Positions 4,095 to 56,504 of a stretch of 64,000 nt of DNA are shown in pieces (positions within the stretch are counted from its first letter, which is position 1; the number at the start of each line of letters is the position of its first letter). The notes beneath the pieces were generated by a model. The model was not told where the DNA came from, ran no database searches, and saw only the letters and a program-made list of their open reading frames with translations. Source of the DNA: a virus (Duplodnaviria; Caudoviricetes). The stretch is taken from the IMG/VR virus record IMGVR_UViG_3300025892_000008, one strand, 5' to 3'. The translations under genes were made by a program, and so were the position numbers.

Positions 4095-4340
4095 TTATAT
4101 TAACCAGTTCCATATTGCTCGTAACCCTAATAACAAGTACATTCCTTCCATTAATGCTCTAGGAATATCTTTATCTTTAATACCAAAGTAAATCCACATT
4201 GTACAACTTACACAGGCAACTGCCCAGCCTATCCATTGTGTTTCTGTATTAGCATTTGAAAGAATAAAAGCAGCAATAATTGCTAGTATAAAGCCTATCC
4301 ATCTAGGCCCATCGATGTTGTGATAGTATCTAATTTTCAT
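4095..4340 (-). CDS. Small membrane protein (about 3 TM helices)
   Basis: 81 aa with hydrophobic, Trp-rich segments. Confidence 0.65.
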
Positions 4341-36212: not shown

Positions 36213-36242
36213 ACTTCTATTTATAGCATATATATACATATG
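36210..36242. promoter_or_regulatory. Divergent phage promoters (TAAATA-N5-ATG on -, TATATA-N5-ATG on +)
   Basis: TATTTA at 36218-36223; TATATA at 36229-36234. Confidence 0.55.
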
Positions 36243-36842
36243 AAAGTAGAACTTGAAGATGTAGCATTTTGGATGGATGCAATTCGCAATAGCGATGATA
36301 GATACCGCACGCTGGAAAGTTTTTGGAAAGGCCAAATCAACAGTAAAGTTTGGTTAGTAGAAGCATTAGAAGAACTAAACATTAATAGTCCTCAAACAAT
36401 TGCTATACATGGAGGCTGGAATGGTTTATTGGCAAGTTTACTTTTCAACAGCAACTTAAATATACAACATATTACAAGTGTAGACATTGATCCTAAATGT
36501 AAAGAAACAGCAATAACAGTAAACAAGCGTCAGGAAATGCAAGGACGTTTCACAGCAGAAACAGCAGACATGTGTACTTACACAGAATTTGCAGATATTG
36601 TAATCAATACAAGTTGTGAACATATTACGCAGGAGCAGTACAACGAATGGCTTGAACGACAACAAAACTCGCTTATTGTATTACAAAGCAATAACTATTT
36701 TGAATTACAAGAGCATGTTAGATGTGCTAACGATTTAAATGAATTTATAAGTCAAAGTAATATAAAACCGTTTTTTAAAGGAACACTTGAAACACCTAAA
36801 TATACAAGATATATGATAATAGGGAAAAAACAAATTGGCTGA
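36240..36842 (+). CDS. Class I SAM-dependent methyltransferase-like protein
   Basis: IAIHGGWNG motif I, ITSVDIDP motif II, TADMC, IVINTSCEH. Confidence 0.75.
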   Translation: MKVELEDVAFWMDAIRNSDDRYRTLESFWKGQINSKVWLVEALEELNINSPQTIAIHGGWNGLLASLLFNSNLNIQHITSVDIDPKCKETAITVNKRQEMQGRFTAETADMCTYTEFADIVINTSCEHITQEQYNEWLERQQNSLIVLQSNNYFELQEHVRCANDLNEFISQSNIKPFFKGTLETPKYTRYMIIGKKQIG

Positions 36843-38217
36843 ACTAGACAAATATAAAAAAGCAATAGCAGATGCTGCTGGTACAGAAACATTTTGTGTC
36901 TTACCATGGATACATTTCGCTACAAGGCCCAACGGTGATATGCGTCTGTGCTGTTCAGCAAACGCCAGCGGCGCAGGTGAGGACCATGAAGTAGGTTTGG
37001 TAAAAATGGAAAACGGCAAGCCTGCAAACTTTGGTAGGGAAACACCGATGGAAGCATGGAATAACGATTACATGAAAAGTGTAAGGACGACTATGCTTGA
37101 TGGCAAAATACCTGCAAGTTGTAGAAAATGCTTTGAGGAAGAGTCTAAAGGAGTTGCAAGTAAACGTGTTTGGGAAAGTTATACTTGGATGGAAGATGGT
37201 GTTGATATACCTGAACTTATAAGACAAACAAAAGAAGATGGCACAGTTCCTGAAAATTTAAAATATCTAGACTTACGTTTAGGACATACATGTAATATTA
37301 AATGTGTCATGTGTTCACCACACGATAGTAGCAAGTGGGTTGCCGATCATAAAAAATTAATTCCAGTTTTACAAGATCCTGAAGTTAAAAGACAAATGCA
37401 ATGGGATAGAAAAGAGTTCAATAACAAATGGCATGAGAAAGATACATTCTGGGAAGAAATGAATGCACAGATCCCTAACTTAAAACAGGTATACTTTGCA
37501 GGTGGCGAGCCGTTAATGATTAGAGAACACAAAAAATTTATTGAAGAAATTATTAGACAAGGATATCAAGACAAAATACTGTTACGTTATAACAGTAACG
37601 GATTGCTAGTTGATGAAGATTTAATAGAATTATGGAGCAAGTTTAAGAAGGTCAAGTTTGCAGTGAGCATGGATGCTAGTCATGGACGTGATGAATATAT
37701 ACGTTATCCTACAAACTTTGAAACTGTAGAAAAAACTTTGCATATGCTTGATAACACACCTGACAACATACAAACAAGTTTAGCAACAGCAATACAGATA
37801 TTCAACATAAAACACTTGCCTGATTTTATGAAGTGGAAACTTGAAAGCGGATTTAAAAAACTAAATGCAGGAACAGTTCCAGGCGGCATACAAATGGGCG
37901 GTGGCCTAGTTAATATGCACCTGTTGTATATTCCAACATTCCTTAGTATACAAATACTACCTGAAGAAGATAAGCAAGAAGTTAAAGAACGCTTCATGGA
38001 CTTTAAAGATTGGCTATGGAATAACTATAGACAAGATGACGAATATTGGAAACATAATCCATATGGGTGGAAACGTTGGGAAGCAGTTCTTAATCACATG
38101 AATGCACAAGACAACAGTCACCTATTACCAGGCTTTAAAGAATATACAAACAAACTTGATGCTATACGTGGACTGTCAGCAGCCAAAGTATTTCCAGAGT
38201 TAGCACACTTACTGTGA
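36835..38217 (+). CDS. Radical SAM protein 4 with N-terminal Twitch/SPASM-like domain
   Basis: FCVLPW...NGDMRLCC...CRKC; CNIKCVMC; YFAGGEP. Confidence 0.92.
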   Translation: MAELDKYKKAIADAAGTETFCVLPWIHFATRPNGDMRLCCSANASGAGEDHEVGLVKMENGKPANFGRETPMEAWNNDYMKSVRTTMLDGKIPASCRKCFEEESKGVASKRVWESYTWMEDGVDIPELIRQTKEDGTVPENLKYLDLRLGHTCNIKCVMCSPHDSSKWVADHKKLIPVLQDPEVKRQMQWDRKEFNNKWHEKDTFWEEMNAQIPNLKQVYFAGGEPLMIREHKKFIEEIIRQGYQDKILLRYNSNGLLVDEDLIELWSKFKKVKFAVSMDASHGRDEYIRYPTNFETVEKTLHMLDNTPDNIQTSLATAIQIFNIKHLPDFMKWKLESGFKKLNAGTVPGGIQMGGGLVNMHLLYIPTFLSIQILPEEDKQEVKERFMDFKDWLWNNYRQDDEYWKHNPYGWKRWEAVLNHMNAQDNSHLLPGFKEYTNKLDAIRGLSAAKVFPELAHLL

Positions 38218-39179
38218 TTAAACAAGTAATAAATTCGCAAAATCCTAAAACACTTCGTATTGAATATATGATTGGCAATACTTGTAATCACAAGTGTTGG
38301 TATTGTTTTAAAGGCTCAAATGAAGGTGAGTTTAGATGGACTGACAATTTTGATGCTACTACTAAAAACTTTTTCCATCTATTAGATCATTATAAAAAAT
38401 ACGGCAAAGAAAGATTTGAAATACACATTGTAGGCGGTGAACCTACACTATGGCCTGAATTAGGTAAGTTTACAAAACTTCTTAAAGAAAATTATAATTC
38501 TTGGATTAGTATTAGTACTAATGGTTCTCGTACATCAAGGTGGTGGGAACAGTACGGAAAATATTTTGATGATGTAATGATTAGTGTACATCATGAATAT
38601 GCTGATATAGAACATTTAAAGAAAATATCTGATATAGTTTATAAGCAAGGACCTGTTGTAAATGCAATGGTATTAATGGATCCGTTTGCTTGGGATAAGT
38701 GTATAGATATAGTAAAGCAATTACGTACAAGTGAATATAGATGGTTTATAAATGCAATGGAAATTATGCACACAACTATTGATTATACAACTGAACAATT
38801 AAAATATATAAGCAAACCAATAAAGAGATATCCTAATCCTTTATGGATATTAAAAAAATTAAAAAACTTAAAACGTAATCCTAAAGTTGTGTTGGATAAC
38901 GGCAAAACAAAAACTGTAAATAGAAATTGGATCGGATTAAACAAGCAAACTAATTTCAAAGGTTGGTTATGTAACATTGGTGTAGATAATCTTTATATTG
39001 ATAAAGACGGTAGAGTTACAGGTGCGTGTAGAACAGTACTATTTGAAAATTATAACATTAATGATGTAGATTTTATAGAAAAATTTAATCCAGTAATCAA
39101 ACCTAAGATATGTGATATGGATTTTTGCGGATGTCAACCTGAACAGTTGTTAGATAAGGTTAAAGTAGTTCCTTTGTAA
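38214..39179 (+). CDS. Radical SAM protein 5
   Basis: CNHKCWYC, IVGGEPT, STNG, C-terminal CNIG...GAC...C...CGC. Confidence 0.9.
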   Translation: MIKQVINSQNPKTLRIEYMIGNTCNHKCWYCFKGSNEGEFRWTDNFDATTKNFFHLLDHYKKYGKERFEIHIVGGEPTLWPELGKFTKLLKENYNSWISISTNGSRTSRWWEQYGKYFDDVMISVHHEYADIEHLKKISDIVYKQGPVVNAMVLMDPFAWDKCIDIVKQLRTSEYRWFINAMEIMHTTIDYTTEQLKYISKPIKRYPNPLWILKKLKNLKRNPKVVLDNGKTKTVNRNWIGLNKQTNFKGWLCNIGVDNLYIDKDGRVTGACRTVLFENYNINDVDFIEKFNPVIKPKICDMDFCGCQPEQLLDKVKVVPL

Positions 39180-40074
39180 GAGGGATGTCAGCGGCACAAG
39201 TACACCACTTACGAGTACAAGTTATCCAATCTTCCGGTTGTTCAAAACTACCGTCATAAATGTTACCTATACTTCCGCCAACTCTACAAGTAGCACGATG
39301 AACTTCACCGTCCCAATTAATCATTAGGCTTTCTATACCTGCACTACACTTCCAACCTTCAAATTGATTTAGATGTTGTTTAATAACATCGTTGGCATGC
39401 ATTTCTTCTTTATCGTCAATGATGACATTAGGCTTTGCTGTTGATGTTTGATTAAGTATCCATTCTAAATCTTTGCCTTCATATTTTAAATCATTAAACA
39501 CGTCATGGTCACCTTCTGTCCATCGTATTCGTCTTACAACATAAGGAATACTGTGTCCGTCAAACATTGTAGCACACTCTTTTACTCTATCCATAAATTT
39601 ATGATGTGCCATTAAGTTAACTTGAAATGGCTTTTTTGTATATGCACCTTCATTTATCTGAGAAAACATTAACACAGTTTCTGCACATCTTCTCCAATGT
39701 TCATTATCTTCTACATGCAAACTAAACACAATATGATTTACATTAAGGTCACTGTAGTACTGTGCTGTCCGTGTTCCGTTAGTAGTTACATTGATCCAAT
39801 CAACACGCTGACTTGCATGATCAACTAGTTCTGTAAACTGTGGGTGTACACACGGTTCACCGCCTGTAAAACTTACACGAATTGATTTATCAATTTCAGC
39901 AAGTGCATCAACTGCATCTATTAATACTTTAATATGTGTGTGTGGGCTAGTGTTATCGTGTATTTCTGCTGGACAATAACTACAATCAAAGTTACAACGT
40001 TTGCCAAGGTTCCATTCAACATGTATACTATTTTGATGTGGCCATTTGCTTATTACTTTATACATAAGGAGCAA
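39160..40074 (-). CDS. Radical SAM protein 6
   Basis: CNFDCSYC, SFTGGEP, TTNG, C-terminal CSAG...ATC...C...CTC. Confidence 0.9.
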   Translation of the reverse strand: MLLMYKVISKWPHQNSIHVEWNLGKRCNFDCSYCPAEIHDNTSPHTHIKVLIDAVDALAEIDKSIRVSFTGGEPCVHPQFTELVDHASQRVDWINVTTNGTRTAQYYSDLNVNHIVFSLHVEDNEHWRRCAETVLMFSQINEGAYTKKPFQVNLMAHHKFMDRVKECATMFDGHSIPYVVRRIRWTEGDHDVFNDLKYEGKDLEWILNQTSTAKPNVIIDDKEEMHANDVIKQHLNQFEGWKCSAGIESLMINWDGEVHRATCRVGGSIGNIYDGSFEQPEDWITCTRKWCTCAADIPLTKELL

Positions 40075-41326
40075 ACTCAGGGTTGGCTGTGAGAAAGTCT
40101 TGCCCCCTAGTTTTATCTAGATTATGGTTGAATGCTATACAGTCTTGCCAATGTGTGTCGTGCATACATTTAGCCTGTAAAAAATTAATGTTGTCTTGTA
40201 TTTGTTGTAGAGTAACTTTTTTAAGCAATTCATTTTCTTTTATAGCATCATAATTTAAAACTTTGGTTTTCATTGCTTCTAAGTCTTTTATTACTTTTTC
40301 TTTTAGTTCTGGCGGCACTACTTGAGCTGACAAAGACATAGGATAGTTTACTCTGTGTGAGTAAAATACAATACCCATATCGTTTAAGAAATAATCAATA
40401 ACATCACAAATCTGCATAATGTTATTTGCTTGAACTGTGAAAGCACCTACTACTCTACTTACATTAGGAAAACTTTTAAAAATTTTTACATTTTCTTCTA
40501 CTTCACTAAACTTACCATTGCCTCTAATATATTCATATGTGTCATGCAAACCATCTATGCTTACATTTACTGCAACACTTTTAAACTTAGGCCAGTAGTC
40601 ATGAATAGTACGTCCACCTTTAATACCTAATGTTGTGCCGTTAGTAGCATACTTAATTTCTATATTTTCTCCATACTCTGCTAGTCTATCTAAAATTTTA
40701 TAGTGGTATGGATCCATCAATGGTTCTCCACCTGCAAATTCTACACGTCTAAAGAAAGGCAATAGTTTTTCAAAACTACTCCACCAGTTGTCTGAGTTAT
40801 CAAACGGACCTATATACTTTCCAGGTGTATCGACTAGTTTTTCAACTGTAGGAATAAGATAGTTGTTTTCTTTTTTATAAAATTCAGTAACTTGATTCCA
40901 ATCTTTCCATTGTGTGCTATCTAACGGATTGCACATACGACACTTTAAATTACAAAGATTGTTAAGTTTTATTTCCATAGTAGGAAGTTCAAATGGCATT
41001 GTGTAATCTTCGTTCAAAGCATCTAAAGCATCAGGGTATAAGTTTACCCTTGCTTCAGGTATTACTCCTGCTATATGACGCTGTCGTAAGCTCTCTACAC
41101 CCTGATCTTCAAGATCAAAGCACGGCTTACAAACATCTGGTCGCTCGTCATTCATTACCTGGCGCCTGACTTCTTTCATCTTGTCGCCATTCCACACTTC
41201 TTCTACTGTTTCATTTTGTATCCAACCAATTGGTTGACTACGACAGCATACTTTGATAGCACCGTCTTCTCTTGTTGCCAAGCCTGTAAAGGGGTGCATA
41301 CAAAATGTTTTACTTTTGCATGGCAT
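40058..41326 (-). CDS. Radical SAM protein 7 with N-terminal Twitch/SPASM-like domain
   Basis: FCMHPF...DGAIKVCC...CKPC; CNLKCRMC; EFAGGEP. Confidence 0.92.
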   Translation of the reverse strand: MPCKSKTFCMHPFTGLATREDGAIKVCCRSQPIGWIQNETVEEVWNGDKMKEVRRQVMNDERPDVCKPCFDLEDQGVESLRQRHIAGVIPEARVNLYPDALDALNEDYTMPFELPTMEIKLNNLCNLKCRMCNPLDSTQWKDWNQVTEFYKKENNYLIPTVEKLVDTPGKYIGPFDNSDNWWSSFEKLLPFFRRVEFAGGEPLMDPYHYKILDRLAEYGENIEIKYATNGTTLGIKGGRTIHDYWPKFKSVAVNVSIDGLHDTYEYIRGNGKFSEVEENVKIFKSFPNVSRVVGAFTVQANNIMQICDVIDYFLNDMGIVFYSHRVNYPMSLSAQVVPPELKEKVIKDLEAMKTKVLNYDAIKENELLKKVTLQQIQDNINFLQAKCMHDTHWQDCIAFNHNLDKTRGQDFLTANPEFAPYV

Positions 41327-43321: not shown

Positions 43322-43666
43322 TTATGATCCTTCTACCTTAACAAAAATATATTGATCATCTTCCTCAATTATTGTTCCTGATCTTCCTGCTTCGTTAAAA
43401 ATATCTTTGCCTATTTCTTCAAAATATTCATAAGCATTTCTGTGGAAATAATTTAGAGTGCAGGTATCAGACACTCTTAAAAAATACCAAGCAAAGTCCT
43501 TACAAGCATACGATTTATGACACACAAACAATTTTCCACCTTCATTATGCCATAATAGTCTGTCTTGAACTTTAATGATAAACGCAGTGTCAGGAGGACT
43601 GTTTACATCATTTGCCCTTGTCATTACGTCTTGCCTGAATTCTTTAATAGTAGCACTTTTTAGCAT
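43322..43666 (-). CDS. Hypothetical protein (114 aa)
   Basis: TAAATA(43677-43672)-N5-ATG start at MLKSAT. Confidence 0.55.
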   Translation of the reverse strand: MLKSATIKEFRQDVMTRANDVNSPPDTAFIIKVQDRLLWHNEGGKLFVCHKSYACKDFAWYFLRVSDTCTLNYFHRNAYEYFEEIGKDIFNEAGRSGTIIEEDDQYIFVKVEGS

Positions 43667-43695
43667 AAGTATATTTATTATATGGAGTATTGGCA

Positions 43696-44607
43696 GTGAA
43701 AATATTAATGACAGGATCATCGGGATTCATAGGTTCTCATCTATCTGAAAGGCTAAAGAATCACGAAGTGCATCACTTGAAAAGTGATTTGCTAGATCAT
43801 CAATCAGTTGCTGGTGAAGTATTATCAGTAAAACCTGATATTATTGTTCATCTTGCTGCACGTACAGAAGTAGAACAAAGTTTTTACGAGCAGATTACAT
43901 TTAGTGAAATTAATTATGTTGGAACAGTTAACTTAATTGAAACAGCAGCCAAGGTAAAAAATTTAAGAAACTTTGTATTTGCAAGTACAATGGAAGTATA
44001 CGGTTGGCAACCTATTTCAGATGAAATTGAAGAACACGGTACACCAAAGCAATCTATAGCATTTGATGAGTACACTGTTCCTAATCCTAATGCTCCGTAT
44101 GCAGTTGCAAAGTATGGTTGTGAAAAGTATTTAGAATATGCACATCGCTGTTATAACTTTCCTTTTACAGCTCTAAGGCAAACAAACTGCTATGGTAGAA
44201 AAGACAATCAGTTTTTTGTAACTGAACAAATTATTAATCAAATGTTAACTAATCCAGATGAGTGCAACTTAGGTTATGCTGAGCCTTATCGTAATTTTAT
44301 TTTTGTTGACGATATGCTAGATGCCTGGGAAACAGTAATTAACAATCCTGACAAATGTAATGACGGAAGTATCTTTACAATTGGTCCAGATAATCCTATC
44401 AAGATTAGAGACTATGCAGAACTAATTGCTAAAAAGTTAGACTGGAAAGGAACTATTAATTGGGATACAAAACTATTTCGTGCAGGAGAGATTTACTGGC
44501 TTAACTCCAACAATACACTAATTAAGAAAAAACTAGGGTGGGAACCAAAAGTTACACTAGACGATGGACTTGATAAAACTATCAAGATATGGAAGGCTAA
44601 AGTATGA
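43696..44607 (+). CDS. NAD-dependent nucleotide-sugar epimerase/dehydratase (dTDP-glucose 4,6-dehydratase-like)
   Basis: TGSSGFIGSHL, VHLAA, FASTMEVYG, PYAVAKYG, LRQTN.YG; GTG start 8 nt after GGAG. Confidence 0.88.
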   Translation: MKILMTGSSGFIGSHLSERLKNHEVHHLKSDLLDHQSVAGEVLSVKPDIIVHLAARTEVEQSFYEQITFSEINYVGTVNLIETAAKVKNLRNFVFASTMEVYGWQPISDEIEEHGTPKQSIAFDEYTVPNPNAPYAVAKYGCEKYLEYAHRCYNFPFTALRQTNCYGRKDNQFFVTEQIINQMLTNPDECNLGYAEPYRNFIFVDDMLDAWETVINNPDKCNDGSIFTIGPDNPIKIRDYAELIAKKLDWKGTINWDTKLFRAGEIYWLNSNNTLIKKKLGWEPKVTLDDGLDKTIKIWKAKV

Positions 44608-45281
44608 AGTGGAATTCATATTTAAAACTTGACAGCATAGGTAGTCCTTGTATGGCACAGCAAACCTACGAGCCATTAGTAAGTGAGGATGGTAAGACAT
44701 TTTGCAAAAACTATTCATTTCCGAACGAATACCAATATAGAGATATCAAGGACCGCCCTCTATACACAAAGGAAGTTGTTGATTGGTTTTTCCAAAATGA
44801 ACTAGCATTCATAGAATATTTCAAGAGTAAGCCTTACGCTCCTGAAATTAAGGACATCGATTATGCCAATCAAAAAATATATCTAAAGTGGTATAGTGAA
44901 AGTTGCAACCAAGTAATGTATAGCGGCCGCGATTGGCCACAAGCACAATGGCGCAAACAGATTAGAGACATAATTATCGATCAGTATGATGAGGGTGTTT
45001 ATAAGTTAACTATGTATCCACACTGCCACTACATTGATGATAATGATAACATGCGGGCAATTGATTGGTATGGATGTGTTCCGGTTGACGAGCCATTCAT
45101 TGAAGAAAAATACATGCAGGGAATTATACACGAGACCGCACAATTTAGATTAGACGAAACCGGCAAACCTATTGAAGATAAACTAAACTTAGAAATAATG
45201 TTCCAACGCAGCCTAAGCACACATGTATTATGGGGAGATCAAGACATGAGTTATATCTACAAGGAATTATTTAATGCCTAA
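44604..45281 (+). CDS. Protein-kinase-like fold protein with degenerate catalytic loop (paralog A)
   Basis: TFCKNY (beta3 Lys), NEL (alphaC Glu), GVYKLTMYPHCHYID in place of HRDLKPEN, RAIDWYG in place of DFG. Confidence 0.55.
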   Translation: MKWNSYLKLDSIGSPCMAQQTYEPLVSEDGKTFCKNYSFPNEYQYRDIKDRPLYTKEVVDWFFQNELAFIEYFKSKPYAPEIKDIDYANQKIYLKWYSESCNQVMYSGRDWPQAQWRKQIRDIIIDQYDEGVYKLTMYPHCHYIDDNDNMRAIDWYGCVPVDEPFIEEKYMQGIIHETAQFRLDETGKPIEDKLNLEIMFQRSLSTHVLWGDQDMSYIYKELFNA

Positions 45282-45846
45282 ATATTTTGGAACTACAAAT
45301 AATATTATAGACTGGGATTCTATTGTAGACGTCTGTAAAAAATGTACAACAGGAGATGTTAATACTCCGGTTGCTGTAATTGATAGAAGCGAAACAGAAG
45401 CCGAAGGCACACTGTTAGAAAGTTATAGAGATATAATGAATACTTGGCTTGAAGCAGGTTATAAACTAGAAGAAATAAAATGGGTTGACTATTATCCTGG
45501 AGAACATTTTGATATTGATATACAAAACAAATTTGCAAAAATAGTAGATGCACAACCTTTAAGAGTGTTTGTAAGTGATGTTGCTCCAGGAAACAATGTA
45601 CCTTACCATTGGGACGTAGAAGATAAAGAAGAAGAATGGTTAGCACAAGGTGAACTTAAACGTTGGGTATGTTTTATAGACAAACCGCGTTGGGGTAATG
45701 TATTAGTATTAGAAGAACAAGCATATCATAATATAGCTCAAGGCGAAATATGGGAATGGGATAATTATCGTAGTCACCATGCAGGAACTAGTATGGGCGT
45801 ACATCACCAGTACTTGTTTCATTTTTTAGGAAGGCCAAACAAATGA
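45274..45846 (+). CDS. Fe(II)/2OG oxygenase 3
   Basis: VPYHWD...SHHAGT (HxD...H). Confidence 0.75.
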   Translation: MPKYFGTTNNIIDWDSIVDVCKKCTTGDVNTPVAVIDRSETEAEGTLLESYRDIMNTWLEAGYKLEEIKWVDYYPGEHFDIDIQNKFAKIVDAQPLRVFVSDVAPGNNVPYHWDVEDKEEEWLAQGELKRWVCFIDKPRWGNVLVLEEQAYHNIAQGEIWEWDNYRSHHAGTSMGVHHQYLFHFLGRPNK

Positions 45847-46370
45847 AAAATTTAGGAGTATGTGATACTATTGACTGGGATAGTGTAATAGAACAATGTG
45901 CAAGTGTTGATCCAGAGTTTGTAGGGCCAAGCCACAAACGTGGAGATACTATTCCTGGACTAGATCCTATATTAGATATGTGGGTGGAAGCAGGATATAA
46001 AACTGTACATGAAGGCGGCACAGCAGGATGGGATATGTTTATTCCGGGAAAGCAGTTTGATGAAAGTGTAGTTGATGAATGGAATACATACTATGGATTA
46101 GAATGTAATAATGTTTGGATCAGTAGAGTATGGCCTGGACGATTTGCTCCTATACACTGGGACGTACATGATGACGAAGTTAATTTACCTGACTGTCCAA
46201 GATATCATTGTCACATAGGAAAACCACAATGGGGACATATTTTTATTGCAGATGAAGAATTATTTTATAACCAGCCACAGGGCACAACTTGGCAATGGAC
46301 TGATAGAAAGATATGGCATGCAGGAACAAACTGTGGAACACAACCTAAATATATATGGAATGCATGGTAA
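45843..46370 (+). CDS. Fe(II)/2OG oxygenase 4 (tandem paralog of oxygenase 3)
   Basis: APIHWD...IWHAGTN...KY; shares IDWDS, PG..FD and KP.WG with the previous gene. Confidence 0.75.
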   Translation: MKNLGVCDTIDWDSVIEQCASVDPEFVGPSHKRGDTIPGLDPILDMWVEAGYKTVHEGGTAGWDMFIPGKQFDESVVDEWNTYYGLECNNVWISRVWPGRFAPIHWDVHDDEVNLPDCPRYHCHIGKPQWGHIFIADEELFYNQPQGTTWQWTDRKIWHAGTNCGTQPKYIWNAW

Positions 46371-47401
46371 TGGAAACAGGAATAGTTACTTGGTTTAATG
46401 ACGCAAAAGGTTTTGGATTTGTAAAAACTGATAGGGGCGATGACATCATCTGCGAAAAATGGCATATGATAACCGAACCAAGAACACTAAAAGAAAGACA
46501 GAAAGTTTCCTTTAACAGATTCCCTTACAAGGGCAAGGAACATGCAGGCGAAATATCAGTACTAGAAGATGATGCAGTTCCAGCACCAGTATTAAATATG
46601 TCACAGGGCAGAGTATACTGCGAGGAACCACTGATAGTAGTATTTGATAATGCTGTTCCGGAAGATGTGTGTGATGAAATAATGTCTAAGCACATTGCTG
46701 ATGGAATGAATCCAGATAGCGGCAAGCAGAGTCGACAGGAAAGTTATACACAAGTTACTGAAGAAGTAGAACAGCGTGGCATTAGTTTAGGAATGGATCC
46801 ACATCACTATAACATCATTGCAAACGCAATTGTGGAGAATTGTGGATTTCCACACTCGCATATTGAAGCAATTGATATCTATAATTATGATAAAGGTAGA
46901 TACTTGGATCTGCATCACGACTATCCTTACTTTCCGGACAAGATTAACTATTACTCTCATGGAAGAAATGATAGGGTAGGCACAGGAATACTATACCTTA
47001 ATGATGATTATGAGGGCGGCAGCACATACTTTCCAAAACTGGATATTGATGTGAAGCCAAAGAAAGGTAGCATGCTATACTTCAAGCAGTGCTATAATGA
47101 AGCCGTTAACTGGAGTACCATACACGAAAGCAAGGTAATTACTAACGGAACGAAATGGATAGCCAGTTGCTTTTTTAGTGAAAGAGAAAGGATTGGCTTT
47201 ACAGACAGGGAGAATTTTGTGCCGGAGAAAAATCCAACATTTGATGAACCATTCTATGTTAAGAAGTTTATGGCTATACAGAGAGATAACGTTCGCCTAT
47301 ATCGCAAACTCAAGAATCTAGAAGAAAGCGAATTAAAAAAAGCAATTGAGGAAACACTAGGCAAGGACTTTTTTGATAAACTAGACGATCTACTAAAATG
47401 A
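46370..47401 (+). CDS. Cold-shock domain fused to a prolyl-4-hydroxylase-like Fe(II)/2OG oxygenase (5)
   Basis: TGIVTWFNDAKGFGFV (CSD RNP1); LHHD...ILYLNDDYEGGSTYFPKL...PKKGSMLYF...IHES..I..GTKW; TAATG coupling. Confidence 0.85.
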   Translation: METGIVTWFNDAKGFGFVKTDRGDDIICEKWHMITEPRTLKERQKVSFNRFPYKGKEHAGEISVLEDDAVPAPVLNMSQGRVYCEEPLIVVFDNAVPEDVCDEIMSKHIADGMNPDSGKQSRQESYTQVTEEVEQRGISLGMDPHHYNIIANAIVENCGFPHSHIEAIDIYNYDKGRYLDLHHDYPYFPDKINYYSHGRNDRVGTGILYLNDDYEGGSTYFPKLDIDVKPKKGSMLYFKQCYNEAVNWSTIHESKVITNGTKWIASCFFSERERIGFTDRENFVPEKNPTFDEPFYVKKFMAIQRDNVRLYRKLKNLEESELKKAIEETLGKDFFDKLDDLLK

Positions 47402-47847
47402 AATTTTATATATTAGGCAGCAACAGAGGATTAGGATTACATCTACGCAACGAGTTTGATTGTGTTAGTTTTGATCGGCCTTATAATCTTGCCAAGGACA
47501 TAGACACCATAGTTGAAAAGATTGAATCAGACAGTGTTGTCATACTAAACGCACACGCAGAAGGTAAGCAGATAAAATATGTGGAAGCACTAAAGGATAG
47601 ATGTAGGTTAGTTGTGTGCGGAAGCATAGCATCACAGAAGAAAGATTTTAGCATGCCAATATACAGCCAACAGAAACAGAAGTTAGAAGAGTATGTATTG
47701 GAACAATCCCTACACAGCAAAATGCCAATGCTGTATCTTAGGTTGACTAGCAGTAGTTATAGGAACTATAATTTAATTACTAACACTATTAGATTCTGGT
47801 TAGACAATCCAGACTTTACATTTGCAGGATATAACATAAATGATTAA
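47398..47847 (+). CDS. Truncated short-chain dehydrogenase/Rossmann-fold protein
   Basis: YILGSNRGLG, VILNAH, VVCGS.AS, YSQQK (YxxxK). Confidence 0.6.
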   Translation: MKFYILGSNRGLGLHLRNEFDCVSFDRPYNLAKDIDTIVEKIESDSVVILNAHAEGKQIKYVEALKDRCRLVVCGSIASQKKDFSMPIYSQQKQKLEEYVLEQSLHSKMPMLYLRLTSSSYRNYNLITNTIRFWLDNPDFTFAGYNIND

Positions 47848-48418
47848 TCAGTATAAAGAATTTACATCATGGGTAGATGTTGACAAGTGGAATGGCATTT
47901 GTAGTGAGATCTATAATGCAAAGATTCTCAACGAATCTAGTAACAGAATGACCAAAGAAAAATGGATTCTTGCTGCGTTAAAATTAAGCAATCACAAGGA
48001 TAATATTGACTGGGTTGATTGTTATGATTATGATGTGGTATTCCAAGAATGGAATTTAGGAAAAGTTGAAATTAAGACCGGTAATCATCCCATGTTTAGC
48101 AAGGTGCAGTGCAAACCAAAAGACATTGTTAAACTTAAATTAAAAAATATTTACGAAAGTTCCTATGATAGAGAAACGTTGGATAAGGACTTTGATCACT
48201 TGATGATTGTTAATCTTGCACCTGTGTTCTGTGTAGCGTTCTGTGATTATGCGACTGCAAATAAACATTTGGTTCAGTTAAAAGACGGATTTCTAACAAA
48301 GATACCTATGGATGAACTAACAATAGTGTATAAAGAATCTAATAAATTTACACAGAGTAAGATCAATTTTGATCCAAAAAGTGTTATAATAGGACAGTTG
48401 GAAGAAGCAGGTTACTAG
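47840..48418 (+). CDS. Hypothetical protein, possible PD-(D/E)xK nuclease fold
   Basis: YDYDVVF......VEIKT matches the D...(D/E)xK signature. Confidence 0.45.
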   Translation: MINQYKEFTSWVDVDKWNGICSEIYNAKILNESSNRMTKEKWILAALKLSNHKDNIDWVDCYDYDVVFQEWNLGKVEIKTGNHPMFSKVQCKPKDIVKLKLKNIYESSYDRETLDKDFDHLMIVNLAPVFCVAFCDYATANKHLVQLKDGFLTKIPMDELTIVYKESNKFTQSKINFDPKSVIIGQLEEAGY

Positions 48419-48419
48419 C

Positions 48420-49022
48420 ATGAGTGAAAACAAAATTATTATAACAGGACATACTAAAGGTATTGGTAAAGCAATATTTGATAAATTTACAGAAGTAAGT
48501 TGCCACAAAATTATAGGTATGAGTCGTAGCAATGGCTACGACATAGAAAAAGACTTTGATAAAATAGTTGAAGAGGCAACTGGTGCAGACTTTTTTGTTA
48601 ATAATGCATATAGAGACGGACAGCAGTTAAAACTGTTTCACGCACTAAAAGACAAAGTGAACATGATGGTTGTTATGGGCAGTGTAAGTAGACACTATCC
48701 TGAACTTATTCCTACAGACTATGTACATGATAAACAAGCACTTGCAGAAGCATGCAGGCTAGAAAGTATTAATCCAAACGGCATTCCTATACTGCACCTA
48801 GATCTTAGTTTTATAGAAGGCACTGAAATACAAGGCGACGATACTACAGCGTTCTTAAGCGATTACAACACACCATTAAATGATATTGTTGATACAATTA
48901 TGTTTTGGGCGCAGAAACCTACTATAAGGCAAATTGAATTTAGGTGGAAACTAACTGAACACGTTAGAAAAGAATTAGAACGTATTAATCCTAACTTAGA
49001 CCCATCTAGGGTACAATTCTAA
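48420..49022 (+). CDS. Short-chain dehydrogenase/reductase
   Basis: IIITGHTKGIG, GMSRSNGYDI, FVNNA, VVMGS, YVHDK (YxxxK). Confidence 0.78.
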   Translation: MSENKIIITGHTKGIGKAIFDKFTEVSCHKIIGMSRSNGYDIEKDFDKIVEEATGADFFVNNAYRDGQQLKLFHALKDKVNMMVVMGSVSRHYPELIPTDYVHDKQALAEACRLESINPNGIPILHLDLSFIEGTEIQGDDTTAFLSDYNTPLNDIVDTIMFWAQKPTIRQIEFRWKLTEHVRKELERINPNLDPSRVQF

Positions 49023-49556
49023 ATTAGCATAAAATTTATCAGGGTGTATCTCCCATACAGTTTGATCTGTATGCCTATAATGCACTTCTTTAATTTTACT
49101 TACTACACCTACCTTAGCAAGTGTAGGAAAATATATTGAGTGTACTAGTCTTTGGCTTCCTTCTTTACTTTTGTTTGAAGTTGCATACACTCTGCCTTTA
49201 CCTTTTGTCCACTCTAAACATGCAGGAAGTAAAAACTGATCAGTAAGATTTTGATGTTCAGCACAAAGTCTATGTGCTTTTACTAATCCGTTGTGCGGTC
49301 TTGCATCACCAAACGTACATACCCTTGTAAGTATTCTATAAGAGTTAGGACCCATAACATCATCAAATGAATGTGCGGCAACACTTCCTATAGCAGTATC
49401 GTTTTCGTATAGTATCCATACATTCCATTCACGCTCATTACGAAAACAGTCAATCATTACTTTCTGACTAGCGTTGTTTACAAAACCTCTGCCTTCAGCC
49501 TTAGCATAAAACTCAGACAAGTCTAAGTTTTCATTCCATTCAACTAACTTATGCAT
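48996..49556 (-). CDS. GNAT-like acyltransferase (tentative)
   Basis: WILYENDTAIGSVA...YRILTRVC...FLLPACLEW pattern; start at MHKLVE. Confidence 0.45.
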   Translation of the reverse strand: MHKLVEWNENLDLSEFYAKAEGRGFVNNASQKVMIDCFRNEREWNVWILYENDTAIGSVAAHSFDDVMGPNSYRILTRVCTFGDARPHNGLVKAHRLCAEHQNLTDQFLLPACLEWTKGKGRVYATSNKSKEGSQRLVHSIYFPTLAKVGVVSKIKEVHYRHTDQTVWEIHPDKFYANLELYPRWV

Positions 49557-50241
49557 AGATTGCTTTTGCCTTTTCCATAACTTCATCAGGGAAGTTTGTT
49601 TTAAAACTATCAAATGCTAGTAATTGTATTTGAACATGGTCTGTAGGAGTATTAACATCGATACCTGCCTCTGTCATTTTAGGCAACAAGTCTGCTTGTC
49701 TATCTTCACTGATGTGACTCATTACACTTTTTAAACTTATTGGTAAATCTGTGTCTTTATAGCAGAAAAAATAGTTAATACTTTTTAGTGTTCCGTCTAC
49801 AACAAAATAACTGCTAGGGTGCATACTGTATTTGTACAACCCCAGGTCCTTGTGTGCTTGAATAATATCAAGCATTTGCTCTTCCCAATTATCAACAACA
49901 CTGTAATCTTTACCTTGACAGCCTGCAAGTTCCCACATGTCAGGTCCGTCAATTTTTAAAAACAACTTTCTGTTAACAAAGTCAATGTCTTGTATTTCTG
50001 GCACATGCTGTGGGTACTTCATTTCCATTTGTTGTATAAAGTTAATCTCACGTAACCATTTCGATTCCATTAGTTCAGAATCCACTACTTGATTATGCCC
50101 GCCATGATATTGTTCATCATTATAGTACCATTGGCAAAATGTCTTTTTATCCTTACTAATCAAACTAGTATATATTAGATTATTTCGGCATTGACCTTTA
50201 CCAGGAACTGTGTTATAATAGTATTCAAAGTTGTTACTCAT
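49549..50241 (-). CDS. Protein-kinase-like fold protein with degenerate active site (paralog B)
   Basis: Similar to 44604-45281 (TFC, PEI.DID..N.K..LK, YK..M.P); GLYKYSMHPSSY and INYF replace HRD..N and DFG. Confidence 0.5.
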   Translation of the reverse strand: MSNNFEYYYNTVPGKGQCRNNLIYTSLISKDKKTFCQWYYNDEQYHGGHNQVVDSELMESKWLREINFIQQMEMKYPQHVPEIQDIDFVNRKLFLKIDGPDMWELAGCQGKDYSVVDNWEEQMLDIIQAHKDLGLYKYSMHPSSYFVVDGTLKSINYFFCYKDTDLPISLKSVMSHISEDRQADLLPKMTEAGIDVNTPTDHVQIQLLAFDSFKTNFPDEVMEKAKAIYA

Positions 50242-53311: not shown

Positions 53312-53956
53312 AACATAGAATTGATAGATTTAAAGCAATATAAAGACTTTTCAAAGTTAACACCTTTTATTGAAAGTTTCAAAGATTTTGACATAAATGC
53401 AGCAATAAAGTTTTTGGAAGATAAAAACGTAAAAGACACAGAGGATATGGATGCCGAATACTGGCATCATGCTGTTGGTACTGAAAGCGGAACAACATAC
53501 ACAAGTAATTGGATCATGAAAGAAGAGGATGAAGAATATCTTGATGATCCTGATGACTTCAAAGGTGTATGGAAATACGTAAAATTTTATTCCCCTAAAG
53601 AATTCGTTCCAGATTTTCTACAAGAATATTTTAAAAAACATATTGATGCGTTGGCGTTTGATTATGAGGTTGAACTACATAGCCTTGCAAGTGGAGCAAG
53701 AATAGAGGATCATGTAGATAAGCCAGGAGTTCCTGTAGGCGAGTCGTCTAACAGAAACTTAGTTATTAGTTTGCAATATCCTAAAGGGTTGCCACCTGAT
53801 ACTATAGGTGTTCATGTAGACAATAAAGCATTTACTCCAGAAGCAGCACCAGTGTTTATGTTTGACTCACAGTACCTACACGGTGCATGGAACAACTCAG
53901 ACGAGCCTTGGGTGTTTGCTGTAGTTTATATTCCTAGTGATAAGATAGATTTATAA
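53309..53956 (+). CDS. Fe(II)/2OG oxygenase 8 (Asp/Asn beta-hydroxylase-like)
   Basis: LASGARIEDHVD...FDSQYLHGAWNNSDEPWVF. Confidence 0.78.
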   Translation: MNIELIDLKQYKDFSKLTPFIESFKDFDINAAIKFLEDKNVKDTEDMDAEYWHHAVGTESGTTYTSNWIMKEEDEEYLDDPDDFKGVWKYVKFYSPKEFVPDFLQEYFKKHIDALAFDYEVELHSLASGARIEDHVDKPGVPVGESSNRNLVISLQYPKGLPPDTIGVHVDNKAFTPEAAPVFMFDSQYLHGAWNNSDEPWVFAVVYIPSDKIDL

Positions 53957-54955
53957 TCTATTTTTTGCGTACTTAGGTAGTACGTTTTGTTCATTTTGTT
54001 TTACTTGATTAATATTTTTAGGACACATATTACAAGCATCTATATGTGAGTAGTGTGTATTATAAAAATTGTTTATAGATTCTTGATCATTAAGTGTTAG
54101 ATCTACAGGCTTGTAATTTAAGTAAGGTTGCCAATCTTCATCATCTAATTGATTTGTTTTTGTTAGTACATTTTTAAGTGTGCCTAATGCTCCGCACTTG
54201 TAAACTTTTTTGTTAATTAGCATTGCACAAAAACAACTAGGGCAGCCTTGCCAATATGATGATTCAGGATCTCCTTGATTAAAAGGTTTTAGTTTTCCTA
54301 ACTCATTCCTGTTATGTATTTTTTGAAAACTATGAGCTTCCATATAGTATATGCCACTCTTTCCATTCATCCATGCTGCTTCGTTAGGTGACTCTTCCAT
54401 TGTTATGTCCATGCCTTTACGCTTATTAAATTCTTGCCACGCAGCATTGCCGCCACCTAAATTCATTATAGCAGACCACCAACTATTTGTAGGTTCGACT
54501 TTATCATATCCTACACGGTCTGCAAGATCGTATACATTTTCTAACATTTGATTATGCTTTGCTAAAACGTCCCATGCTGCTACATGACTACAAATTTGCA
54601 TCCATACATTATGTTTTGTAATTAACTCTACAGCAAGATCCATTACCTTTGGTTTGTTTAGTGCAATACCATTAGTAGGAAAGAAAATAACTTTATCTTT
54701 TTCTTTTTCTAAACTTCGAATATGTTCAATAATTGCTATAACTGTATCTGTGTATAAGAAAGGTTCTCCGCCTAACACACTCCAACAATCTACATTAAAC
54801 TGTTGGCTAGCAAGTGTAACACTTTCTAAAATGTTATCAAGTGTAGGATCAAATTCTCCGTGTCGTATGTAGTCACTTCTTGTATCACAGTGAGCACAAG
54901 CAAGTTGGCATTTGTTGCCGTAGAATATATCTAATATTTTAATACTATCGTTCAT
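53951..54955 (-). CDS. Radical SAM protein 8
   Basis: CQLACAHC, VLGGEP, PTNG, C-terminal GCP..C....YKC...CNMCP. Confidence 0.88.
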   Translation of the reverse strand: MNDSIKILDIFYGNKCQLACAHCDTRSDYIRHGEFDPTLDNILESVTLASQQFNVDCWSVLGGEPFLYTDTVIAIIEHIRSLEKEKDKVIFFPTNGIALNKPKVMDLAVELITKHNVWMQICSHVAAWDVLAKHNQMLENVYDLADRVGYDKVEPTNSWWSAIMNLGGGNAAWQEFNKRKGMDITMEESPNEAAWMNGKSGIYYMEAHSFQKIHNRNELGKLKPFNQGDPESSYWQGCPSCFCAMLINKKVYKCGALGTLKNVLTKTNQLDDEDWQPYLNYKPVDLTLNDQESINNFYNTHYSHIDACNMCPKNINQVKQNEQNVLPKYAKNRL

Positions 54956-55610
54956 TCTGTTTTCTATAACTTCTTGCTATAAGTTCAACAAATTCATCTT
55001 TACGTTTACCTGGTATTCCATGTGCTATTAAGTGTATTCTAGGTGTGTTAGAATTGTTAACAAAACTATGCACGTTTCTTATATTAATTATAAAAGCCTT
55101 TCCTTCTTTAAAAGGAACAGTACCATGTCCTTCAAGGGTCATATGACAATCGTCTGGGTGAATAATTGCTATGTTAATAGGTACTCCAAACTCAAGCATA
55201 TCTAAATTTTCTTCACCTGGTAACTTTCCAGGAGCATCACTGTGCGGACTTATTTTGCCGCCAGGTTCAAGTTGCATAAAACGTATTCTTCTATAGCGTT
55301 CATATGGAAACAATTCCCAAAAGCCTTTGATGCTAGGTGTATGCTCACTTATACTAGTCCATTTGTAAGGAACATCTTCTTCTCTTTCATAGCCGTAGTT
55401 TGTCCAAGCACCAGTTTTATCCACATCAATGCCATGTATGCAACTACTGTTCCATCCAGGATGTTCTCCGCCTCTATGATCTACAAATTTTGCAGCGGCA
55501 GTTTCCTTTTTCCATACGTCTAAATTGAACTCTATATCTAATTCAAGCCAACCAAAATTGCTTCTATTCAGTAACCAATCTGCAACTTCGTAGTCATTTT
55601 GTGCTATCAT
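54945..55610 (-). CDS. Fe(II)/2OG oxygenase 9 (Asp/Asn beta-hydroxylase-like)
   Basis: RIRFMQLEPGG.ISPHSD...NVHSFVN....RIHLI. Confidence 0.82.
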   Translation of the reverse strand: MIAQNDYEVADWLLNRSNFGWLELDIEFNLDVWKKETAAAKFVDHRGGEHPGWNSSCIHGIDVDKTGAWTNYGYEREEDVPYKWTSISEHTPSIKGFWELFPYERYRRIRFMQLEPGGKISPHSDAPGKLPGEENLDMLEFGVPINIAIIHPDDCHMTLEGHGTVPFKEGKAFIINIRNVHSFVNNSNTPRIHLIAHGIPGKRKDEFVELIARSYRKQNER

Positions 55611-55652
55611 AAGTATATTTATGTGCGTATATTATAGATAAGTAGTAGTATG
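55608..55652. promoter_or_regulatory. Divergent promoters (TAAATA-N5-ATG on -, TAAGTA-N5-ATG on +)
   Basis: TATTTA at 55616-55621; TAAGTA at 55639-55644. Confidence 0.65.
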
Positions 55653-56504
55653 GTATCAATATCTCACTTAGAATGGCATGTAGCACACGCTTGTAATTTT
55701 ACATGCGAAAACTGCTGTCATTTTTCTAATCATGGACATAGTGTTCCTGTAACATATGAACAAATTGAACAATGGTATGATAGTTGGGCGCATAGAATAG
55801 CACCTAAAACAATAGACATACTAGGAGGCGAGCCATTACTTAACAAACGTATTTGCGATATTGTAGAACTTACACGTAAGAAATGGGATAAGCCTAGTCT
55901 AGAAAGATTAGATATAACAACAAATGGTGTGCTATTGAATAGGTATCCTGATTTACCAAAGGTTCTTGCAGATAATAACTGTGGATTAAAAATATCTAAG
56001 CACGGTACTAATGCTGAATATAATGAACTTTGGAAGGGCATAGAAGCAACTGCACTAGAATGGATTGACCAATACGGAATCAATGTTGACTTTTGGAAGT
56101 CAGATGTTGTTTGGTATAAGATGTATAAAGGATTTGGATCTACAATGGAGCCGTATGAAGATAACGATCCAGAGCAAAGTTGGAACAATTGCATTACAGG
56201 ACAAGACTGTTGGCAAATACATGAGAATAATTTGTACAAGTGTGCTCCATTAGCGTACTTGCCTATGACAGCAAAAACATACAAGTTGTCTAGTAAGTGG
56301 GATCCTTATTTAAAGTACCAAGCACTTACGCCAGATTGTACAGACGAAGAGCTACAAGAATTTTTTAACAGGAAAGCAGAAAGTTTTTGTGCAATGTGTC
56401 CTAAGAACCCTAAAATATTACATAGGAAAAACGATCCTAGATTAAGTAAAAAACATTACGAACAGATACCGTTGGAGGAAGTACATGAAGAACAAATACG
56501 ATAA
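55650..56504 (+). CDS. Radical SAM protein 9
   Basis: CNFTCENC, ILGGEP, TTNG, C-terminal C....C....LYKC...CAMCP. Confidence 0.9.
   Translation: MVSISHLEWHVAHACNFTCENCCHFSNHGHSVPVTYEQIEQWYDSWAHRIAPKTIDILGGEPLLNKRICDIVELTRKKWDKPSLERLDITTNGVLLNRYPDLPKVLADNNCGLKISKHGTNAEYNELWKGIEATALEWIDQYGINVDFWKSDVVWYKMYKGFGSTMEPYEDNDPEQSWNNCITGQDCWQIHENNLYKCAPLAYLPMTAKTYKLSSKWDPYLKYQALTPDCTDEELQEFFNRKAESFCAMCPKNPKILHRKNDPRLSKKHYEQIPLEEVHEEQIR

Follow-up and report, generated by a model that had tools for sequence, protein, structure and literature searches.

A cold-shock-like domain fused to a collagen-type prolyl 4-hydroxylase in marine giant phages: a candidate swappable adaptor within a conserved enzyme module

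Prolyl 4-hydroxylases (P4Hs) have established roles in collagen, in plant cell walls, in oxygen sensing, and on EF-Tu. To our knowledge, they have not been found in multi-enzyme phage pathways, nor with a cold-shock-like domain attached, and our literature searches returned no description of a fusion between a cold-shock domain (CSD) and a P4H. The best sequence-profile match and top Foldseek match to the phage protein described here is BaP4H of Bacillus anthracis (PDB 3itq, 5hv0, 5iat, 5v7y), which is about 216 aa long, stands alone with neither a cold-shock domain nor a helical tail, and reportedly modifies EF-Tu. The same fold is found in CrP4H-1 of Chlamydomonas (2jig, 3gze), human C-P4H alpha (7zsc), and the PBCV-1 hydroxylase vCPH (5c5t). 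The bacterial cold-shock proteins CspA and CspB (1mjc, 1csp, 9xw3) likewise stand alone, with an RNP2 motif that reads V-F-V-H-F. A further system of interest is Skp1 of Dictyostelium and Toxoplasma, in which a cytoplasmic P4H (PhyA) hydroxylates one proline near the C-terminus, to which sugars are then added [PMC6437050].

Here, we describe a gene of an uncultured marine giant phage that joins a CSD and a P4H in one protein. The window, i.e., the whole stretch of DNA that was analyzed, spans 64,000 nucleotides. The open reading frame at 46370-47401 (+) encodes 343 aa (protein P0001; ATG 46370, stop TGA 47399-47401). Its start codon shares bases with the preceding stop (TAATG), and its own stop shares bases with the following start (ATGA). 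An in-frame ATG at 46355 would extend the protein by five residues; the start at 46370 is supported because relatives, e.g., the one in locus L014, begin METG or MEKG. The order of domains proposed by the sequence-only reading, a CSD followed by a P4H-type domain and a helical tail (Table 1), is confirmed by a predicted model and by Pfam matches to PF00313 CSD (residues 3-63, E 2.8e-9, 37.1 bits; cut-off 27) and PF13640 2OG-FeII_Oxy_3 (residues 170-269, E 2.4e-10, 41.7 bits; cut-off 27). PHROGs are concordant, assigning residues 80-278 to phrog_61 (2OG oxygenase) and also matching phrog_729 (cold-shock protein). The AlphaFold2 model (pLDDT 86.6, pTM 0.80) places a five-strand barrel at residues 2-66 ahead of a jelly-roll core, with helices at 294-318, 323-330, and 338-342, and its pTM suggests that the CSD and tail may dock onto the catalytic domain. 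The linker is gapped at residues 67-75 in about 47 of 121 family members and has a dN/dS of 0.25-0.97; in the model, its pLDDT exceeds 90.

Table 1. Coordinates of the fusion gene, its parts, and neighboring genes in the window
Feature	Position	Strand	Basis or remark
CSD + P4H-type oxygenase + helical tail, 343 aa	46370..47401	+	ORF, Pfam
Cold-shock-like domain, residues 1-66	46370..46567	+	Pfam CSD, structural match
Linker, residues 67-84	46568..46621	+	Sequence and length vary among relatives
Prolyl-4-hydroxylase-type Fe(II)/2OG oxygenase domain, residues 85-272	46622..47185	+	Profile and structure matches
Codons H182-H183-D184 (HxD iron ligands)	46913..46921	+	H182, D184 invariant
Codons H252 (distal iron ligand) to K262 (2OG C5-carboxylate lysine, +10)	47123..47155	+	Both invariant
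Helical C-terminal tail, residues 286-343	47225..47398	+	Homologous to free 60-66 aa gene
Small protein-kinase-like-fold protein	44604..45281	+	In 43/48 related loci
Cupin-like putative oxygenase A	45274..45846	+	In 41/48 loci
Cupin-like putative oxygenase B	45843..46370	+	In 40/48 loci; stop overlaps start of the 46370 gene
Downstream genes 47398-47847, 47840-48418, 48420-49022	47398..49022	+	Overlapping starts/stops; some short-chain-dehydrogenase-like
Paralogue of kinase-like protein	49549-50241	minus	

The sequence-only reading had raised the prospect that the fusion is an assembly artifact absent from related genomes; instead, the fusion is conserved across clusters, loci, and studies. 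It is present in more than 100 protein clusters plus about 50 viral loci, and nearly all of the 158 homologues found carry PF00313 plus PF13640. Neighboring phage genes here share 1-8 nt, which makes fusions easy to form, and the gene might be taken for an assembly or gene-calling artifact or for a recent, functionless read-through that arose by accident. However, the identical protein occurs on 36 contigs, the architecture is unchanged where family identity falls to 30%, and near-identical DNA appears in marine metagenome runs from eight studies with dates from 2014 to 2025. Every segment of the CSD-P4H-tail protein is also under purifying selection (dN/dS 0.25-0.28 for the CSD, 0.07-0.16 for the oxygenase domain, and 0.14 for the tail). 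These conservation data refute the artifact explanation, to which we assign a negligible probability.

The genome-contig collection searched contained no cellular copy of the fusion; the cellular matches in that collection are P4Hs at 27-31% identity or separate Csp genes. Phage GenBank records yielded no close relative (none by blastn; at most 34% identity by tblastn, in the oxygenase only). Contigs from RNA libraries span the operon; such contigs cannot prove transcription, with DNA carry-over being possible. Promoter and terminator scans around the gene gave hits at chance level only.

The oxygenase domain belongs with the collagen-type P4Hs. A family profile compared with the PDB matched BaP4H (E 5e-38, residues 74-269), CrP4H (6e-20), human C-P4H alpha-2 (1e-19), and PBCV-1 vCPH (7e-15), and the top 12 Foldseek matches for the model were all BaP4H. 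VIA Z scores were 19.4 for CrP4H, 18.8 for BaP4H, 17.4 for both C-P4H-II and vCPH, 15.1 for the EF-Tu hydroxylase PPHD (4iw3), and 12.8 for PHD2. PPHD and PHD2 thus rank under the collagen-type P4Hs but are clear structural matches nonetheless; both are absent from the sequence-profile matches at E up to 0.01. The likeness to AlkB and TET is at the level of the generic fold: AlkB, ALKBH proteins, and NgTET1 score Z 10.6-12.7, 5-8 Z units under the P4Hs, and rank below more than 15 non-nucleic-acid enzymes in the structure search. PF13640 and PF00313 were the only Pfam matches at E up to 0.1, with none to AlkB PF13532 or TET/JBP.

Across 54 diverse members of the family, six residues of the active site (H182, D184, H252, K262, E166, and R202) do not vary. 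The first four align to CrP4H His143, Asp145, His227, and Lys237, while the other two, E166 and R202, correspond to Glu127 and Arg161, a couple that positions the peptide substrate in CrP4H [PMC5684110]. With BaP4H, the phage protein has in common the HxD...H triad, the +10 Lys, and a conserved Glu and Arg in the substrate cleft, and it conserves the iron ligands, 2OG lysine, and Glu127/Arg161 couple of CrP4H-1, C-P4H, and vCPH. In contrast, identity to BaP4H is only 26-32%, and the accessory domains differ from those of the other three, with neither a PDI subunit nor a peptide-substrate-binding domain in the phage protein. At the positions of CrP4H Tyr140 and Trp243, the phage protein has L179 and F268, and its handling of the substrate may therefore depart from that of known P4Hs. 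An aromatic residue (Y/F178) lies one position before L179, and the Tyr140 alignment may be off by one. Two loops (about 113-141 and 186-201) have low pLDDT, yet their sequence is nearly invariant, which leads us to infer that they are substrate-embracing lids recognizing a conserved substrate; the first is a longer insert than in BaP4H.

The CSD has kept the cold-shock fold but lost much of its canonical binding surface. In the predicted structure, it forms a five-stranded, OB-like beta-barrel (strands 2-10, 15-20, 25-29, 45-53, and 56-66) that superposes on CspA 1mjc (Foldseek TM 0.87, rmsd 1.1 Å) and Mtb CspB (Z 11.2, rmsd 1.6 Å). Residues 4-18 are GIVTWFNDAKGFGFV and residues 25-30 are DIICEK, both as previously noted, and family column counts bear out the description of RNP1 as intact and RNP2 as degenerate. 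The RNP1 motif KGFGFV occupies residues 13-18, with K13 and G16 each in 118 of 121 members and F or Y at position 17 in 118; W8, F/Y9, K13, F/Y15, and F17 are retained in the family, and RNP1, W8, and K13 are common to the phage CSD and CspA/CspB. In place of RNP2 V-F-V-H-F, residues 26-31 read I-I-C-E-K-W: F27 is mostly I/L, H29 is E in 92/118, and F30 is K/R in 99/118. The F38-equivalent is deleted and a Pro inserted, leaving a shorter loop than in CspA/CspB. Altogether, four of the seven canonical base-stacking residues are gone in every lineage; for comparison, the stand-alone Csp of locus L047 has I-Y-V-S-H at RNP2. The CSD also falls below the NCBIfam Csp equivalogs CspA/C/D/E/G (best 41.9 bits against cut-offs of 115-152), and a search with residues 1-66 alone returned only the same family, with no other partners. 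The phage CSD, which is fused to enzymes rather than standing alone, is probably a divergent, swappable adaptor and not a canonical single-strand nucleic-acid clamp. Some residual RNA or ssDNA binding is possible because the platform retains an intact, conserved RNP1 half.

Related phages reshuffle the same parts. Our census of viral loci found CSD-P4H-tail in 20, CSD-P4H plus a free tail gene in 21, and a CSD joined to glutathione peroxidase (CSD-GPx), followed by P4H and then a free tail gene, in 14, with one CSD per locus. The CSD-GPx family recurs in 17 loci; in these sister phages, the hydroxylase is encoded separately and has no CSD. Locus L051 has a CSD-less hydroxylase paralogue in the same island type. 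Other viral loci pair GPx with generic 2OG oxygenase genes in the absence of a CSD; these matches are weak and carry no weight here. By Rosetta-stone logic, the CSD, peroxidase, hydroxylase, and small protein would act together, either in a complex or in successive steps; the patterns of fusion and adjacency point to a putative physical association.

A new finding is that the helical tail exists elsewhere as a gene of its own and was fused once. Free small ORFs match residues 286-340 at 38-58% identity (BLASTP, E 1e-11 to 8e-19), and the triple fusion CSD-P4H-tail forms one clade (99/99 support). Since related loci encode the tail as a free gene of 60 aa, the protein in the window is a three-part fusion that arose once. 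The tail matched no known fold or family, with PDB matches at chance level (E of at least 0.24) and atlas scores below 0.85. The free small proteins end in Thr/Cys/Gly-Pro-Ala, whereas the fused tail has no C-terminal proline. One further protein, P0054, has a P4H-tail form without a CSD and may have been called from an internal Met.

The fusion gene belongs to a co-directional block (43690-49022), in which it is translationally coupled, and its module partners recur in 40-43 of 48 loci even though the loci are rearranged. The model of the upstream kinase-like protein (pLDDT 90) weakly matches RIO2, WbdD, and Ark1 (TM 0.4-0.54), with no Pfam or PDB sequence match. The two cupin-like oxygenases are paralogues (hhalign E 7e-44); for cupin B, the protein atlas gives a weak lead to PF05118, an Asp/Asn hydroxylase family (11% of one cluster). 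Neither cupin, nor the kinase-like protein, had a match in PDB profile searches. Downstream, gene 48420 has a weak adh_short match, and synteny is kept in L001-L018 and L049. The surrounding island encodes NAD-dependent epimerases/dehydratases, a UDP-glucose dehydrogenase domain, at least nine radical SAM enzymes, and SDR-like proteins. Among the proteins encoded in the 64-kb window, part of a genome of roughly 267 kb, none is Pro-rich or collagen-like. The position of the gene, midway in a translationally coupled biosynthetic operon, fits a pathway enzyme better than one acting on the ribosome or a translation factor. The sugar epimerases, UDP-glucose dehydrogenase domain, and many radical SAMs also fit a small-molecule or glycan pathway.

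Our best explanation, with a probability of roughly 0.5, is a peptidyl-proline hydroxylase within a conserved phage enzyme module, with the CSD as a swappable adaptor. It builds on the domain identities, catalytic and peptide-positioning residues, conservation, synteny, alternative architectures, and single origin of the tail fusion established above. The protein would be a catalytically active member of the collagen-type P4H clade of Fe(II)/2-oxoglutarate oxygenases, hydroxylating a proline of a protein or peptide. This would be one step of a module made up of the kinase-like protein, two cupin-like oxygenases, the hydroxylase, and the small helical protein, located in a large island where radical SAM and sugar-nucleotide enzymes abound. 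The CSD adaptor would be used once per island, on the hydroxylase or on a glutathione-peroxidase domain, and the C-terminal tail would be a partner protein fused on once by this phage lineage. Since related phages reshuffle these parts, a protein or peptide is most likely what is modified, rather than RNA or DNA.

The sequence-only reading had favored a hydroxylase targeted to nucleic acid or the ribosome. An aim at nucleic acid is unsupported because the catalytic domain is that of a collagen-type P4H, with its peptide-positioning Glu-Arg couple intact and a likeness to AlkB/TET at the level of the generic fold only, because the CSD is degraded, and because the same CSD sits on glutathione peroxidase in sister phages, where the hydroxylase is alone. 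One alternative is a base oxygenase functionally analogous to AlkB or TET/JBP, aimed by the CSD at ssDNA or RNA and feeding DNA or tRNA hypermodification. QueD-like and QueC-like genes and a thymidylate synthase do lie in the same window, and the structure of the kinase-like partner weakly resembles the RNA kinase Ark1 and RIO kinases. However, this alternative is highly improbable given the missing Pfam matches, Z scores far below the 17-19 of the P4Hs, conserved peptide-positioning residues, and a degraded nucleic-acid surface on the CSD; the window also has no tRNA gene. A ribosome or translation-factor target, a narrower form of the sequence-only reading, is possible because of the reported activity of BaP4H on EF-Tu. 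The CSD would then tether the hydroxylase to RNA or the ribosome, and hydroxylation of a proline of EF-Tu or a ribosomal protein would reprogram host translation in an oxygen-dependent manner. The structural match to the Pseudomonas PPHD-EF-Tu complex, the conserved RNP1 and aromatics W8, F15, and F17, and the intact peptidyl-proline machinery all agree with such a role. We nevertheless consider it unlikely, as RNP2 and F38 are lost in all lineages, Glu occupies the central His position, and the CSD and hydroxylase part company in the sister phages and in the L051 paralogue. The gene is also coupled to a biosynthetic operon rather than placed among early host-takeover genes.

Two further possibilities concern what the island itself makes. 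The hydroxylase may act on an island-made small molecule, such as a free or carrier-bound amino acid, amino-sugar, or nucleotide-sugar, leaving the CSD and tail to serve only in scaffolding or oligomerization. The neighboring epimerases/dehydratases, UDP-glucose dehydrogenase domain, radical SAMs, and SDR-like proteins would suit this, as would the small-molecule enzymes among the structural matches (PiuC, Z 16.2; PolD, Z 14.0; HygX; EvdO2). It is unlikely all the same, since both sequence and structure are closest to peptidyl-proline hydroxylases, the couple equivalent to Glu127/Arg161 is invariant, and the free-proline hydroxylase 7dzz reaches only Z 11.3. Alternatively, the 60-aa helical protein would be a scaffold or carrier whose near-C-terminal proline is hydroxylated by the P4H, after which the kinase-like, cupin, radical SAM, sugar-nucleotide, and glycosyltransferase enzymes of the island elaborate the protein. 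The Skp1 system offers an analogy here, not homology: in the phage, too, a P4H is encoded with a small protein (with an X-Pro-Ala end in relatives) and adjoins sugar-nucleotide enzymes and glycosyltransferases. Unlike in the Skp1 system, the fused tail in the window has no C-terminal proline, and we rate this elaborated-carrier scheme as rather improbable. If true, it would amount to phage-encoded, protein-templated hydroxyproline glycosylation or a peptide-derived metabolite pathway, with the cold-shock-like domain and peroxidase as assembly-line adaptors.

Returning to the peptidyl-proline hydroxylase with a swappable CSD, the CSD-P4H family is both abundant and conserved among marine giant phages, and the reshuffled CSD, peroxidase, hydroxylase, and small helical protein mark a functional unit. 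The identity of the substrate would reveal the product of the large island of radical-SAM and sugar enzymes, as well as whether a cold-shock fold can take on the role of protein adaptor rather than RNA binder.

The gene under study encodes a cold-shock domain (CSD), a prolyl 4-hydroxylase (P4H)-type oxygenase and a C-terminal helical tail (residues 286-343) in one reading frame, as the sequence-only reading had described. Pfam matches the CSD at residues 3-63 with 37.1 bits and 2OG-FeII_Oxy_3 at residues 170-269 with 41.7 bits, the cut-off being 27 in both cases, and the PHROGs assignment of the protein is consistent with both. An AlphaFold2 model based on 54 relatives (pLDDT 86.6, pTM 0.80) predicts a five-strand barrel, then a jelly-roll core, then three C-terminal helices. 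The gene sits within a co-directional, overlapping gene block (43690-49022); it overlaps the genes on both sides, its start codon sharing bases with the preceding stop codon (TAATG) and its own stop codon with the following start codon (ATGA).

The possibility that the fusion is an assembly artefact missing from relatives did not hold. A search among 5.8 billion proteins yielded 158 homologues, nearly all with both Pfam domains. Two size groups can be told apart, one of ~343 aa (58-98% identity) and one of ~272-291 aa that lacks the tail (52-57% identity). The identical 343-aa protein is present on 36 contigs of up to 266.6 kb, and pairwise dN/dS is low (CSD 0.25-0.28, oxygenase 0.07-0.16, tail 0.14). 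In an exhaustive HMMER search over 1.84 billion cluster representatives, scores fell steeply beyond the CSD-P4H family, with one extra lineage carrying both domains (P0124, 32% identity). We found no CSD-P4H fusion in cellular genomes of the GTDB species set, only distant stand-alone oxygenases in isolated-phage records, and no published description of the fusion in the literature searched.

The window has a GC content of 36%, and its other genes include those for tail proteins, an endolysin, a ThyX-type thymidylate synthase and a clamp loader. The likeness of this clamp loader to those of PA5oct-like Pseudomonas jumbo phages, taken with the 266.6-kb contig, assigns the window to an uncultured marine jumbo myovirus. 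Near-identical DNA to 44604-49022 is present in marine metagenome runs of eight studies (2014-2025) and in two metatranscriptome runs, and contigs cover 43600-49100 with 0-1 differences. The RNA-library contigs over the operon are compatible with transcription, which they do not prove. One 200-nt metatranscriptome contig (depth 2.5x) joins 46376 to 46755 via 155 unrelated letters, with flanks of only 22-23 nt; this weak evidence probably reflects a related phage with another N-terminal region.

Coordinates of the features discussed (positions in the window unless preceded by the handle of a related viral locus, L)
Feature	Position	Strand	Remarks
CSD-P4H-tail gene	46370-47401	+	ATG 46370, TGA 47399-47401, 343 aa
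Kinase-like-fold protein	44604-45281		predicted model; accompanies P4H in 43/48 loci
Kinase-like paralogue	49549-50241	-	one row in the alignment of the 44604-type family
Cupin-like tandem paralogues	45274-45846; 45843-46370		175-190 aa, conserved His/Asp motifs
Radical SAM genes	31726-41326; 53951-56504		at least nine, in ~25 kb
Clamp loader	4337-5251	-	54% identity to PA5oct-like Pseudomonas jumbo phage clamp loaders
CSD-GPx	L130:5992-6717	+	fusion
CSD-GPx	L044:9261-9983; L135:2402-3109; L139:5989-6720; L208:4258-4989		fusion
Free tail genes (examples)	L039:6414-6596; L024:8956-9138; L022:8839-9039

The catalytic domain resembles peptidyl-proline hydroxylases. The family profile matches the Bacillus anthracis enzyme BaP4H at E 5e-38, Chlamydomonas CrP4H at 6e-20, human C-P4H alpha-2 at 1e-19 and the PBCV-1 enzyme vCPH at 7e-15, and the top-ranked Foldseek matches are BaP4H chains. 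An independent all-against-representatives structural search gave Z scores of 19.4 (CrP4H), 18.8 (BaP4H), 17.4 (C-P4H), 17.4 (vCPH) and 15.1 (the Pseudomonas EF-Tu hydroxylase PPHD); AlkB, ALKBH proteins and TET reached only 10.6-12.7, and a nucleic-acid base, one target that the sequence-only reading had raised, is an unlikely substrate. Six residues are unchanged in all 54 diverse members and align by HMM to CrP4H: H182 (His143), D184 (Asp145), H252 (His227), K262 (Lys237), E166 (Glu127) and R202 (Arg161). In CrP4H, Glu127 and Arg161 act as a pair that holds the peptide substrate in position (PMC5684110). CrP4H has Tyr140 and Trp243, whereas the window protein has Leu179 and Phe268 at the aligned sites. 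Loops ~113-141 and 186-201 have low model confidence yet near-invariant sequence, and we infer that they are mobile lids closing over a conserved substrate.

The predicted CSD superposes on CspA (TM 0.87, rmsd 1.1 A), and the intact RNP1 and degenerate RNP2 noted from the sequence prove to be family-wide. RNP1-side residues are kept (W8, F/Y9, K13, F/Y15, F17), while the RNP2 strand is replaced by I-I-C-E-K-W, where Glu takes the place of His29 (92 of 118 members) and Lys/Arg that of Phe30; the Phe38 loop is shorter and contains Pro. The CSD scores 42 bits, compared with NCBIfam Csp cut-offs of 115-152. Every lineage has thus lost roughly half the canonical stacking platform. Because the replacements are themselves conserved, this points to changed function rather than decay.

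HMMs of the CSD, glutathione peroxidase (GPx), P4H and tail were run on six-frame translations of all viral loci retrieved. Single-ORF CSD-P4H-tail genes occur in 20 loci, including the window, and CSD-P4H with a separate tail gene in 21. Another 14 carry, in this order, a CSD-GPx fusion, a P4H lacking the CSD and a tail gene of its own; four more loci of this type, truncated at contig ends, are outside that count. There is exactly one CSD per locus, and the same patterns recur on two metagenome contigs. P0054, a protein cluster of 266 aa, has hydroxylase and tail without a CSD; it could represent a fourth architecture, or its gene could have been called from an internal Met.

CSD-GPx is a family of its own (17 loci, 43-46% identity across full length). 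The ~240-aa protein carries the same divergent CSD and a Cys-type GPx (recognised at E 8e-35) with the Cys, Gln and Trp-Asn motifs present. Its gene always adjoins or neighbours the CSD-less hydroxylase copy, and in L139 an epimerase gene lies between them. In a maximum-likelihood phylogeny built on the P4H domain, the triple fusions group together in a single clade (support 99/99; its member L017 ends at a contig edge), and CSD-GPx loci are dispersed among short forms on an unresolved backbone. The divergent L049 lineage (kinase-like, SDR-like, CSD-P4H, free tail, SDR-like) has the window's order prior to fusion.

The helical tail is also homologous to free genes of 60-66 aa, which align to window residues 286-340 (38-58% identity, E 1e-11 to 8e-19), and so represents a third protein that can have a gene of its own. 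Of 14 distinct free tails, 13 end in X-Pro-Ala/Arg/Thr (X = Thr/Cys/Gly/Ala), placing a conserved penultimate proline beside a proline hydroxylase gene. Most fused tails, including the window's, end in Asp-Asp-Leu-x-Lys, and the window's tail lacks this proline. We regard the free-tail terminus as a lead to the substrate; no Pro-rich candidate was found within the 64-kb window.

The hydroxylase also keeps constant company. Kinase-like paralogues of 225-230 aa have a compact protein-kinase-like predicted fold (pLDDT 90, modelled for the 44604-type family only), with unusual catalytic-loop motifs (Y-P-H-C-H, D-W-Y-G-C) and weak matches, nearest to RIO2, WbdD and the RNA kinase Ark1. The two cupin-like proteins are paralogous (hhalign E 7e-44), accompany P4H in 41/48 and 40/48 loci, and have no sequence match in Pfam, NCBIfam or PDB and a weak lead to the Asp/Asn beta-hydroxylase family. 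These partners are retained even in loci with different gene order. Genes nearby encode NAD-dependent sugar epimerases/dehydratases, Asp/Asn-hydroxylase-like proteins, a UDP-glucose dehydrogenase domain and numerous radical SAM enzymes. Some of these radical SAM enzymes have SPASM domains, and two place SPASM N-terminal to the radical SAM core, an unusual order.

Two other substrates remain rivals to a peptidyl proline. A translation factor, also raised by the sequence-only reading, stays in contention because BaP4H reportedly modifies EF-Tu (title of 5v7y; reference list of PMC6437050), and a small molecule does so because of the sugar-enzyme and radical SAM surroundings. Based on sequence, predicted structure and gene context, as for all functional readings here, active peptidyl-proline 4-hydroxylation is the most likely role of the enzyme. 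The patterns of fusion and adjacency argue that CSD, GPx, P4H and tail act together. Peptidyl-proline hydroxylation would be one step inside a conserved phage module, in which the cold-shock-like domain appears to be a swappable adaptor common to hydroxylase and peroxidase, and the tail appears to be a partner protein.
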